From Candidatus Heimdallarchaeota archaeon (GTDB lineage Archaea > Asgardarchaeota > Heimdallarchaeia > Heimdallarchaeales > Heimdallarchaeaceae), in assembly GCA_021399395.1 (NCBI GenBank), contig JAAFKJ010000001.1:1-64000 (forward strand): a DNA stretch of 64,000 nt, read 5' to 3'. Shown here one piece after another: positions 15,105 to 17,669 of the stretch (positions are counted from its first letter, which is position 1; each line of letters opens with the position of its first letter). The position numbers were made by a program, and so were the translations under genes. The notes beneath the pieces were generated by a model. The model saw only the letters and a program-made list of their open reading frames with translations. It searched no databases and was not told the origin of the DNA.

Positions 15105-16295
15105 ATGTCCTTTAGGAACAGTTTCGGATTAGATTTTCATTTTTCTGAGAATGAAATTTATCTAGATTCTGCTACTTCAGGTAAGTTACCAGTTACTTCT
15201 CTTGAAACCATGAATCGCTATTATACAGATTTGGGCGGTGGACTTAACAGAGGTACTCACAAAAAAGCATTGAATGCCAATAGAATTTTAGAAAGATCTC
15301 GCTCCACTATCGCACATATCTTCTCAATAGAACCTTCTAATCTTTCTTTTCTCCCTTCAAGAGAAACAGCAATAACAAATTTCCTTTCATCGGGAATATT
15401 TTCAAGTGAAGATGAAGTTATTGTTAGCTCATTAGATGACCACTCAGTTATTGCACCACTGCTCAAGATAAAATCATTATATAAGACTAACTTAAATTTC
15501 GTATCTTTAAAGGAAGAAAGTAATCTGGCTGAATCAATAAAAAATAAGATATCAAACAAAACTAAAGCAATTGTTTTATCTTCCCTGACATTAGGAATGG
15601 GTATTAGTAGGGATTGGAGAGAATTAGCTAAGATAGCTCAAGATGCTGAAATACTATTCTTACTTGACATAAGTAACGAAGTTGGTCATAAGAATTTTAA
15701 TTTCAAAGAAATTATGCCCGATATGGTTATTTCTTCAGGCAATATTGGCGCACTAGGACCTCAAGGAACCGCTTTTCAAATCTTAAAAGAAGATATGATC
15801 AAAAAATTCGATCCCATACTTGTTGGTGGTGGATCTGTTATATCGCTTACTAAGGACAATTTCAGACTATCTTCTACTATTTCAAAATATGAACCGGGAA
15901 CTTTGAATATCGCTGGAATTTCTGCTTTAGCGAACAGTTTACATTCATTATCTGAGATAGGGTTTGAGACCATTTCAGAACATGAGAAAAATCTTAGAAG
16001 GTTTCTTGTTAATGGATTATCAGAAACAAGTAAAATTGATATCATCGAACATCCAAAATTAAATTATGGTCCGATTCTTTCCTTTAAGAGCGAAGAAATA
16101 GATGCTCATGATATAGCAATTATTTTAGAAGATTTAGGAAATATCTATTTGAGAAGTGGGGCACTCTGTTCTCACTTATTTATGGAAGAAGTAAAACAAG
16201 AATCACTTGTTCAAGTTTCAACTCATCTTTATAATACTAAAGAGGATATTGAAATATTCTTAGAAACTCTAAACTCAATAATGACAGAGATTTAA
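15105..16295 (+). CDS. SufS-like class V aminotransferase-fold protein lacking the PLP lysine (copy 1)
   Basis: YLDSAT, GGG, EPGT, RSGALCSH, STHLYNT; SGHK replaced by SGNI. Start moved to ATG 15105. Confidence 0.85.
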   Translation: MSFRNSFGLDFHFSENEIYLDSATSGKLPVTSLETMNRYYTDLGGGLNRGTHKKALNANRILERSRSTIAHIFSIEPSNLSFLPSRETAITNFLSSGIFSSEDEVIVSSLDDHSVIAPLLKIKSLYKTNLNFVSLKEESNLAESIKNKISNKTKAIVLSSLTLGMGISRDWRELAKIAQDAEILFLLDISNEVGHKNFNFKEIMPDMVISSGNIGALGPQGTAFQILKEDMIKKFDPILVGGGSVISLTKDNFRLSSTISKYEPGTLNIAGISALANSLHSLSEIGFETISEHEKNLRRFLVNGLSETSKIDIIEHPKLNYGPILSFKSEEIDAHDIAIILEDLGNIYLRSGALCSHLFMEEVKQESLVQVSTHLYNTKEDIEIFLETLNSIMTEI

Positions 16296-16472
16296 AATAA
16301 TCGGTCACCTAAGCTTCTTTCTGACATCGCTTTACGCTTTACCAAATGCCTTCCGATCATTCCGATATATGTCAGTTACCAATTATATATACAAAAGTTT
16401 CTATGGATGAAAGTATTTATTTTTTGAACTAGTAAAATTTTAATACAGAATAGAGAATAGAAAAAAGAAACT

Positions 16473-17669
16473 ATGTCATCAAATACTCATTTCGGGATTG
16501 ATTTCAACATTAAACCAGGCCAAATTTATCTGGATTCAGCAACAATAGGCAAAATGCCCATTTCTTCAATAGAAACTATAACTAATTTCTATTCGAATGG
16601 AGGAGGTGTTCCAGTTAGAGGGATGTATAATGAAATATCTCAAGCGAATAATATCCTAGAATCTAATCGTAGAGAACTGGCTAGTATGTTCCAAATAGAT
16701 CCCATACAGATATCATTTTTCTCTTCTAGAGAAGTTGTTTTGACAAATACATTATATTCTCTTCCAGATCTAAAGGATAGGAGAATCGTTTCTAGCATTC
16801 TTGAAGAACATTCAGTCATAGCCCCAGCAATAAGAGTAAACAATGATGTAGGAACAAAAATTGAATACTTAAATCTAGATGATGAAATCGATATTCTTGA
16901 TAGTATTAATGAAAAAATCAATTCAAAAGAAGATATACTTCTGCTATCATCTCTAACTGCAACTAATGGAGTAAAAAGGAATTGGTCAGAAATCACCAAA
17001 ATATGTCAAGATAATGGTGCAACCTTTATTCTGGATATGAGCTATTCAGTAGGACATGAAGAAATACTCTTAAAGGACAATATGCCTGACATAGTCTTTT
17101 CATCAGGATGTATTGGTGCGCTAGGACCCCCTGGAACAGCTTTTCAAATAACTACTAATGAGATATATCCAGATATGGACCCCTTAATTGTTGGGGGAGG
17201 TTCCATAATCACTTTAGAAGAAGAATATTATCTTTTGAATTCTGCTGGATCAAAATTTGAGACTGGATTGCTAAATATTGCCAACATATCTTCGATGACG
17301 AATAGTCTGAAGCTCTTATCTGAGGTGGGCTTCACAAAAATCCAGCAGCATGAAGAAACACTAATTTCTCACTTGCATAAAGGTCTAAAGGACATAGAAG
17401 GTATTGAAGTTAATGAACTCGAGAATGCTGAATATGGGTCTATTGTTTCATTTGGTAGCGAGCTAATTGAAGCACATGATTTTGCTCTTGTTCTCGAAGA
17501 TTTGAAAAACATCCAAGTTCGAAGTGGTGCCCTTTGTTCTCATCTGTTCATGTATGAATTGAAATATTCTGATATAGTAAGGATATCGACACATCTCTAT
17601 AATACTAAAGAAGAAATAACGATATTATTAGAAACAATATCTTCTCTACTCAAACAGATGCAAATTTAA
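16473..17669 (+). CDS. SufS-like class V aminotransferase-fold protein lacking the PLP lysine (copy 2)
   Basis: YLDSAT, VGGGS, RSGALCSH, RISTHLYNT; SGHK replaced by SGCI. Tandem paralogue of copy 1. Confidence 0.85.
   Translation: MSSNTHFGIDFNIKPGQIYLDSATIGKMPISSIETITNFYSNGGGVPVRGMYNEISQANNILESNRRELASMFQIDPIQISFFSSREVVLTNTLYSLPDLKDRRIVSSILEEHSVIAPAIRVNNDVGTKIEYLNLDDEIDILDSINEKINSKEDILLLSSLTATNGVKRNWSEITKICQDNGATFILDMSYSVGHEEILLKDNMPDIVFSSGCIGALGPPGTAFQITTNEIYPDMDPLIVGGGSIITLEEEYYLLNSAGSKFETGLLNIANISSMTNSLKLLSEVGFTKIQQHEETLISHLHKGLKDIEGIEVNELENAEYGSIVSFGSELIEAHDFALVLEDLKNIQVRSGALCSHLFMYELKYSDIVRISTHLYNTKEEITILLETISSLLKQMQI

Follow-up and report, generated by a model that had tools for sequence, protein, structure and literature searches.

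The window analysed here, that is, the whole stretch of 64,000 nucleotides at positions 1 to 64,000 of contig JAAFKJ010000001.1 (Candidatus Heimdallarchaeota archaeon, assembly GCA_021399395.1), carries two consecutive genes for proteins that resemble the cysteine desulfurase SufS, lack the Lys that forms the Schiff base with pyridoxal 5'-phosphate (PLP), and keep the Cys of the RxGxxC loop. A first-pass annotation of the sequence had proposed two full-length open reading frames (ORFs) at this place, and we recovered both, here called copy 1 and copy 2 (table 1). The analyses below indicate that they are the duplicated form of a real, conserved, and apparently undescribed family of type II pseudo-desulfurases. 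An in-frame TTG at 15063 offers an alternative start for copy 1; many of its orthologs are 396 amino acids (aa) long, as from the ATG.

The two proteins are 47% identical over 397 columns and match the whole Pfam model PF00266 (Aminotran_5) with 207.7 and 199 bits, respectively (cut-off 21.5). The top solved relative of both is 5b7s from Thermococcus onnurineus (E-values of 2.8e-46 for copy 1 and 2.8e-38 for copy 2), followed by the SufS of Bacillus subtilis and other SufS. Their scores against the NCBIfam sufS model TIGR01979 (205.1 and 186.9 bits) lie far below its cut-off of 475.1, which the Lys-bearing SufS-like protein of the same genome (382.6 bits; hereafter the true SufS) also misses. 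The IscS model TIGR02006 scored lower still, with 45.3 and 57.2 bits.

All the motifs quoted in the first-pass annotation are present in the translations and in the alignments to solved SufS-type enzymes. SGNIGALGP (copy 1) and SGCIGALGP (copy 2) lie opposite SGHKGPMGP of 5b7s, with Ile in the position of the Lys and a 13-residue stretch devoid of Lys; DDHSV and EEHSV lie opposite EHHS, and DISN and DMSY opposite DAAQ. RSGALCSHLFM and STHLYNTKE are the same in both copies. The reported exchange of the substrate Arg in copy 1 (VQVST, against VRIST in copy 2) is seen at the position of B. subtilis R376.

Table 1. Features of the window around the two SufS-like genes
Feature	Position	Strand	Details
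Copy 1, Lys-less SufS-like protein, 396 aa	15105..16295	+	ORF; ATG 15105, stop 16293-16295; SGNIGALGP, DDHS, DISN, RSGALCSHLFM, VQVSTHLYN
Copy 2, Lys-less SufS-like protein, 398 aa	16473..17669	+	ORF; SGCIGALGP, EEHS, DMSY, RSGALCSHLFM, VRISTHLYN
Spacer between copies, 177 bp	16296..16472	.	Sequence
Small-RNA-like conserved element	16306-16366	-	5' half of spacer, just past copy-1 stop
TATA-like A/T-rich stretch	~16434-16445		Some 30 nt 5' of copy-2 ATG
148-aa ORF	14577-15023	-	No Pfam match; divergent, upstream of copy 1
ARPC4-like ORF	14016-14504	-	PF05856, 31.3 bits (cut-off 22.2); divergent, upstream of copy 1
Radical SAM gene	12860-14005	+	Upstream of copies
Radical SAM gene	11654-12691	-	Upstream of copies
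LarA-like gene	18403-19788	-	Lar_N, 130.9 bits; downstream of copies

Distribution and phylogeny

A word-indexed protein search with copy 2 as query returned 130 proteins at E ≤ 1e-10. Among the best 120 of these 130, 96 (41–100% identity) form the family, in two paralog groups, and beyond them identity falls to 29% and the matches are ordinary SufS with the His-Lys (HK) pair. The NCBI organism labels in the family were all Heimdall or Asgard among the matches listed. When 1.84 billion cluster representatives were searched with a profile, the best 150 clusters comprised 124 with HK, 25 without Lys in the 13-residue stretch, and one fragment without the region. The Cys was kept in 24 of the 25 Lys-less clusters, the remaining one being a truncated fragment, and those with labels came from Kariarchaeaceae, Ranarchaeia, and Promethearchaeota. 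When a distant Lys-less member served as query, 327 proteins were found at E ≤ 1e-40; the best 120 of these Thor-type matches all lacked HK and had Gln at the Arg site, with Thorarchaeota, Sifarchaeia, and Promethearchaeota among their labels. No fused form of 698–2000 aa was found at E ≤ 1e-20 (weak evidence by the tool's own grading), and the longest of the 25 Lys-less representatives does not exceed 404 aa.

At the genome level, 215 of 400 Asgard species genomes had a match at E ≤ 1e-20. The Lys-less form was verified from the genome sequence in nine GTDB families (f1, f2, f3, f4, f5, f15, f27, f30, and f31); 12 of 20 further genome matches checked showed only Lys-bearing SufS, and the largest family sampled (f20) had two matches in 135 genomes, both Lys-bearing. 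The labels of Lys-less proteins span the Heimdall, Kari, Thor, Sif, and Ran groups of Asgard archaea, the phylum that comprises the closest archaeal relatives of eukaryotes. All source labels of the Lys-less clade were Asgard, and it is by these labels alone that an occurrence outside the phylum was judged.

The phylogeny, computed by quick searches without bootstraps, comprised 83 rows, of which 53 are Lys-less and 30 Lys-bearing. All 53 Lys-less rows fall on one side of a single branch, whose support in the Shimodaira–Hasegawa-like approximate likelihood-ratio test (SH-aLRT) is 99 under LG+G4, 99 under the C20 mixture, in which the long row P0224 was flagged, and 95 once 59 columns around the active-site motifs are removed. 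The Lys-less clade is nested among Lys-bearing SufS, and its near neighbors include SGHKG-type enzymes, the type of 5b7s; one ancient loss of the Lys is the simplest reading of this topology. The copy-1 clade (SH-aLRT 97) and the copy-2 clade (98–99) both lie deep within the Lys-less clade, and they arise within Heimdall family f1, after the single-copy branches of genera g3–g5 and before the split of g1, the genus of the present genome, and g2. The first-pass annotation had placed the loss of the Lys before the duplication, and the tree agrees by a wide margin.

It had also treated the tandem pair as a unit, which did not hold up. The pair is a late, local elaboration: most carriers of the Lys-less gene have a single copy, the duplication occurs in a single family only, and the copies lie in tandem in only one genus. 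The full pair was found in 14 g1 genomes, the present one included, and is interrupted by a contig end in four more. Because the copies of one further g1 genome (G032) lie 5.6 kb apart and the two paralogs of g2 are unlinked, on separate contigs, the tandem layout is not required. Between the copies of the separated locus (L043, G032:C15, 9847–14473) lie two ORFs of 621 and 429 aa without annotation, insertion-like in appearance.

Selection on the two copies

Only the genome pair G025–G026 was used to estimate the ratio of nonsynonymous to synonymous substitution rates (dN/dS), because almost all pairs were saturated at synonymous sites (dS > 1.2 or undefined). In this pair, dN/dS is 0.172 for copy 1 (dS 0.39) and 0.190 for copy 2 (dS 0.19), and 0.083 and 0.084 for the true SufS and for the IscS-like gene described below, respectively. 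As the first-pass annotation had supposed, both copies are under purifying selection, about half as strong as that on the true SufS. Within the genus, identity to the present genome is 81–94% for the true SufS, 75–89% for the IscS-like protein, 53–80% for copy 2, and 49–72% for copy 1. Faster evolution than that of the true SufS, with a dN/dS about twice as high, is what one would expect if the copies were decaying relics without function, and the possibility of pseudogene decay in relatives had been raised at the outset. Yet among the listed family matches the reading frames are intact, save for one TAA that is apparently terminal (a 394-aa ORF is open there), dN/dS stays at 0.17–0.19, the Lys-less form extends to nine GTDB families, and the Cys and Arg are invariant, which already contradicts this explanation and leaves it next to no credit.

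Active-site residues lost and kept

The residue alignment comprised 89 database members (44 copy-2-type and 45 copy-1-type), six genome-read proteins, three distant relatives, and seven Lys-bearing SufS. Positions are given in copy-2 numbering unless stated; B. subtilis numbering was transferred through the alignment to 5j8q and agrees with the mutant names in PDB titles (H121A, C361A, and R376A; table 2). A Lys at or beside the Schiff-base position occurs in none of the 95 family rows, HK in all seven Lys-bearing SufS rows, and the Cys of the RxGxxC loop in all 95 family rows.

Table 2. Equivalent active-site positions
B. subtilis SufS	E. coli SufS	Copy 2	Copy 1
K224	K226	I214/G215	Same region, no Lys
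H121 (mapped with H121A entry 7ceq)	H123	E112	Asp
H122		H113	Kept
R356	R359	R350	Kept
C361		C355	Kept
R376		R370	Gln
H342-D343		H335-D336	Kept

Columns were counted as lost when conserved in six or seven of the seven Lys-bearing rows yet altered in the family. At position 87, the Thr/Ser of SufS, presumably a phosphate ligand, has become an invariant Glu. The His at position 112 is replaced by Glu in copy 2 and Asp in copy 1, that at 160 by Ser/Ala, and that at 213 by Cys in 37 of 44 copy-2-type proteins and by Ser/Asn/Thr in the copy-1-type; positions 163 (Asn) and 191 (Gln) have become variable, and the Schiff-base Lys column itself holds Ile/Val/Met or Ile/Ser/Asn/His across the family. The Thr at 266 gives way to Ile/Leu in copy 2 and to Thr/Ser/Gln in copy 1, and the His-His at 353–354, before the Cys, to Ala-Leu. 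Several of the lost positions (the Asn, the Gln, the His before the Lys, and the Thr of the other subunit) we take to be PLP contacts. A migrated catalytic Lys was ruled out, as the family has no conserved Lys of its own, the sole conserved one, K261, being common to true SufS.

Other columns are kept. R350 and C355 are present in 89 of 89 database members, as is D336; H335 is found in 33 of 44 copy-2-type and 43 of 45 copy-1-type proteins, and R49, the equivalent of E. coli R56, in 44 of 44 and 40 of 45, respectively. H113 and D188, the latter presumably the SufS Asp in contact with the ring nitrogen of PLP, are kept in all rows, and Ser211 in 80 of 89; C355, R350, and D188 are also invariant across 22 very diverse Lys-less members in a separate alignment. 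Position 370 is Arg in all 44 copy-2-type proteins and Gln in 44 of 45 copy-1-type proteins and in single-copy relatives.

In Escherichia coli SufS, K226 removes the alpha-proton, H123 deprotonates C364, and R56 and R359 act mainly in the transpersulfurase step (relevant passages of PMC11507941). In B. subtilis SufS, H342 enters the Zn coordination of SufU by ligand exchange, and D343 forms a salt bridge with SufU R125 (relevant passages of PMC13066941). Set against these roles, the column-by-column pattern of loss and retention suggests that the family shed the residues of C–S cleavage and kept those of persulfide hand-over. Because the Lys, the Cys-deprotonating His, and cofactor-site positions are lost, the canonical cysteine-desulfurase reaction should no longer be possible, and we infer from the sequences that the Lys-less proteins would be cofactor-free and unable to desulfurate cysteine.

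The same columns may also be read as those of proteins that are still enzymes, in which a B6 vitamer or another ligand would be bound non-covalently and the Cys/Arg pair would act on a sulfur or selenium compound in a different reaction that needs no Lys; if so, they would represent new chemistry on an old scaffold. In agreement with this, D188 is invariant across the Lys-less clade and H113 within the Heimdall family, though the latter is replaced in some Thor-type members, all 44 copy-2-type proteins keep the Arg that corresponds to B. subtilis R376, selection on both copies is purifying, and the IscS of Archaeoglobus fulgidus binds pyridoxamine 5'-phosphate (PMP) despite a Lys-to-Asp exchange (as described in part of PMC8918507). 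However, position 87 is an invariant Glu, Asn163, Gln191, His213, and Thr266 are replaced, no family-specific Lys could have migrated, K261 being common to true SufS, and Gln stands at position 370 of copy 1 (44/45), of single-copy relatives, and of the best 120 of the 327 Thor-type members, so that we consider a remaining enzymatic activity unlikely.

Predicted fold and dimer

The AlphaFold2 model of copy 2 (19-row alignment) has a mean predicted local distance difference test score (pLDDT) of 91.4 and a predicted template modeling score (pTM) of 0.92, with two less confident stretches, 41–50 (mean 68, the loop with R49) and 351–360 (mean 67, the Cys loop). Foldseek matched it to the SufS structures of B. 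subtilis, T. onnurineus, and E. coli with template modeling (TM) scores of 0.88–0.90. Cofolding copy 2 with copy 1, each chain with its own alignment, gave an interface score (ipSAE) of 0.92 in three of three runs, the best of three controls reaching 0.00, with 259–276 contacts, a partner pLDDT of 90, and at least 84% contact agreement between runs; in the calibration of the tool, 58 of 80 solved complexes and two of 110 mismatched pairs attain this mark. The predicted interface comprises residues 84–88, 112–114, 211, 213, 264–271, and 348–358, as expected for the old cofactor site.

The heterodimer modeling put forward in the first-pass annotation thus clears its controls, though by resemblance to SufS homodimers alone: because these are solved, the result indicates that a SufS-like interface is kept, not that a heterodimer is preferred to a homodimer. 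The two copies are nonetheless asymmetric, in that Arg370 is found in copy 2 alone and position 266, which we assume reaches into the site of the partner subunit, is more often Thr/Ser/Gln in copy 1 and Ile/Leu in copy 2. This asymmetry fits a copy 1:copy 2 heterodimer without proving it.

The composition of this interface also bears on the idea that, in the Heimdall family, the old PLP pocket has turned into an acidic His/Cys site for Fe or Zn, which would sense metal or donate it for clusters. Residues 84–88, 112–114, 211, 213, 355, and 357–358 belong to the predicted interface, E87, D188, H113, H357, H374, and C355 are invariant, position 112 is Glu/Asp, and C213 is found in 37 of 44 copy-2-type proteins. 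Yet the acidic switch at 87 and 112 is not kept in the wider clade, in which the majority of distant members have EHHS and a varied position 87, and some Lys-bearing SufS likewise have H357 and H374; a metal site of this kind is therefore rather doubtful.

Gene neighborhood and spacer

In the Heimdall family, the region is syntenic and of housekeeping character, with genes for LonB, phosphoribosyl pyrophosphate synthase, a THUMP methyltransferase, and two radical S-adenosylmethionine (SAM) proteins, together with ARPC4-like, LarA-like, major facilitator superfamily transporter, and PolB genes. The trio of ARPC4-like gene, 148-aa ORF, and SufS-like gene is found in all 14 family loci that reach that far, single-copy genera included. 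The LarA-like and radical SAM genes are syntenic in the family and absent from the loci of other families, and thus have no supported link to the SufS-like genes. The window was compared with five loci belonging to three other families: the sharing of neighbors among these five was confined to same-family pairs, and their annotated neighbors are unrelated genes (PheRS-like, endonuclease V, Ras-like GTPase, LigT, and CCA-adding enzyme). Gene context was accordingly dropped as a functional clue, since it consists of housekeeping synteny within the family and no neighbors are shared across families.

The TATA-like stretch upstream of the ATG of copy 2 (table 1), read by eye from the spacer sequence, suggests that this copy probably has its own promoter; "ttttaata" is present in six of eight aligned spacers of the genus, with a near variant in one and one spacer incomplete. 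About 60 nt of the small-RNA-like element in the same spacer is conserved in all eight aligned spacers (GGTCACCTAAGCTTCTTTCTG...ACCAAATGCCTTCCGATCATTCC, plus strand), and a 12-base unit is repeated within it in one genome of the genus. A search of the spacer against Rfam gave nothing near the gathering score, the top match being sR24 (15.7 bits vs. 36).

Sulfur-related genes of the genome and family

The genome (2.8 Mb in 201 contigs, 81.8% complete) encodes its single Lys-bearing SufS-like protein on contig C106 (SIHK, EHHS, RSGNMC), and a gene of this kind occurs in 28 of 31 family genomes. This frequency, together with the retention of the fold's dimer interface in the cofold model, would be compatible with a role of the Lys-less proteins as regulators of the true SufS, for example through mixed dimers or competition for the acceptor. 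A mixed dimer is not favored, however, because the true SufS falls into another subclade of SufS, is only about 25–26% identical to both copies, is unlinked to them, and evolves more slowly, and three family genomes (84–91% complete) carry Lys-less genes and gave no true-SufS match with the query used. Regulation of the true SufS thus appears very unlikely.

The genome also encodes an IscS/NifS-like protein (contig C165, locus L004, 1435–2682, minus strand), whose gene directly adjoins that of IscU (908–1423, minus strand). This protein is Lys-less too, with NSNRILGPKG (Arg in the position) where IscS enzymes have an S-x-H-K motif, and with the SSGSAC Cys loop kept. The IscS-like gene, which scores 340 bits with the NifS model (type I), occurs in 27 of 31 family genomes. 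Another class V protein of the genome has the Lys and no Cys loop, and three of the four Cys-loop desulfurase-like proteins of the genome are without Lys.

No SUFBD_core match was found in the genome, and none near the copies. SUFBD_core (SufB/SufD, PF01458) was detected in nine of 31 family genomes, namely in four of 24 of this genus and five of six of four sister genera. It is unlikely that the 20 misses in 24 genomes (72–92% complete) all result from assembly gaps, and the gene content suggests a possible loss, in most of the genus, of the SufBC-type scaffold for iron–sulfur (Fe–S) clusters. A NifU_N gene next to the copies was found neither in the window nor in 20 related loci; across the 400 Asgard genomes, NifU_N occurs in 358, including families without the Lys-less protein.

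Functional interpretation

The reading that we prefer, by analogy with characterized desulfurases, is that of cofactor-free, non-desulfurating proteins in which Cys355, with R350, would hold sulfur or ligate a cluster and a partner would dock through the retained surface; we put its probability at roughly 0.45. The proteins would form SufS-like dimers, as modeled, and in genus g1 possibly copy 1:copy 2 heterodimers. The Cys would carry or receive persulfide or sulfide and hand it to the docked partner or, alternatively, act as a ligand of a nascent Fe–S cluster, as proposed for A. fulgidus IscS with IscU. The sulfur might come from the one Lys-bearing SufS-like enzyme of the genome or from environmental sulfide; the minimal systems MIS and SMS are able to use sulfide, and an active desulfurase is missing from some archaea (according to parts of PMC13066941).

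Several observations weigh against this reading. No SufE match was found in the genome at its 81.8% completeness, the single IscU gene adjoins the IscS-like gene and not the Lys-less pair, and IscU gives no co-occurrence signal, because it is near-universal in Asgard genomes. The comparison of the five outside loci with the window showed no neighbor conserved outside the Heimdall family, and the evolutionary rate of each copy is two to three times that of the true SufS. By our own structural reasoning, the SufS fold would also make an awkward acceptor, because its Cys loop lies inside the active-site channel, into which acceptors insert their own loop. Finally, some B6-like ligand is possible, because D188 and H113 are kept and A. 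fulgidus IscS binds PMP.

A more far-reaching proposal is that an Asgard SufS gave rise to a new PLP-independent class of sulfur-transfer or scaffold proteins, which retains the hand-over half only and was duplicated into an asymmetric heterodimer in a SufB-poor genus. The Cys, the two Arg, and the His-Asp dyad would be kept to work with sulfide or persulfide made elsewhere, and in the heterodimer the copy-2 pocket, with its own Arg370 and the Thr/Ser/Gln266 of copy 1, would be more SufS-like than the other pocket. We regard this proposal as speculative and quite improbable.

The family touches an open question, the supply of sulfur to Fe–S clusters and thio-cofactors in anaerobic archaea. If its proteins carry or ligate sulfur, they would exemplify the SufS fold at work without PLP and provide a handle on Fe–S biogenesis in Asgard archaea. 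In public records, members are annotated as "PLP-dependent enzyme" or "cysteine desulfurase/selenocysteine lyase," which is misleading for metabolic reconstructions.

Comparison with known systems

A full-text search of the literature (main texts) returned neither a description of SufS-type proteins without the Lys nor one of the present Asgard family, and the available portions of the reviews PMC8918507 and PMC13066941 and of the perspective PMC6857552 do not mention a Lys-less SufS-type family. The first-pass annotation had called the two proteins an undescribed pseudo-desulfurase pair; this remains apt for the family, but pseudo-desulfurases as such have type I precedents (parts of PMC8918507 and PMC7585200). 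The IscS of A. fulgidus (4hvk, 4eb5), with Asp in place of the Lys, is inactive, its Cys has been proposed as a ligand for the IscU cluster, and it still binds PMP (relevant part of PMC8918507). IscS1 of Methanosarcina acetivorans is a Lys-less type I paralog (relevant part of PMC7585200); for both proteins a role without desulfurase activity has been proposed, that of a Cys ligand or scaffold partner.

The copies share with SufS/CsdA (5b7s; B. subtilis 5j8q and 5xt5; E. coli 6mr2 and 1jf9) the fold and length, with 5b7s the length of the one-residue-longer SGHKG-type loop, and with SufS the short RxGxxC Cys loop and the equivalents of E. coli R56/R359 and B. subtilis H342/D343. Unlike SufS, they have neither the Schiff-base Lys nor the acid/base His, positions 87, 160, 163, 191, 213, and 266 are replaced, the HHC before and at the Cys has Ala-Leu for its two His, and no SufE or SufBCD is nearby or was found in the genome.

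With A. fulgidus IscS and M. acetivorans IscS1, the copies have in common an origin in anaerobic archaea, a desulfurase fold, the loss of the Lys, and the retention of the Cys. Those two are type I proteins encoded beside iscU, whereas the copies are type II and not beside iscU and, unlike the PMP-binding A. fulgidus IscS, have lost most of the conserved cofactor-site positions. A. fulgidus IscS is the closest working analog of the Asgard family, which is therefore an analog and not a member of that type, and the type I and type II losses of the Lys, which in sequence belong to different branches of the superfamily, are independent. The same contrast exists within the present genome, whose IscS-like protein on contig C165 is likewise Lys-less with a Cys loop but is type I, adjoins iscU, and is more constrained (dN/dS 0.084). 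The "dead" desulfurases described so far are type I proteins paired with IscU; a type II branch made the same move independently, and its case is distinct in that the cofactor site is far more eroded, the transfer residues are selectively kept, and the family extends across much of the Asgard phylum.

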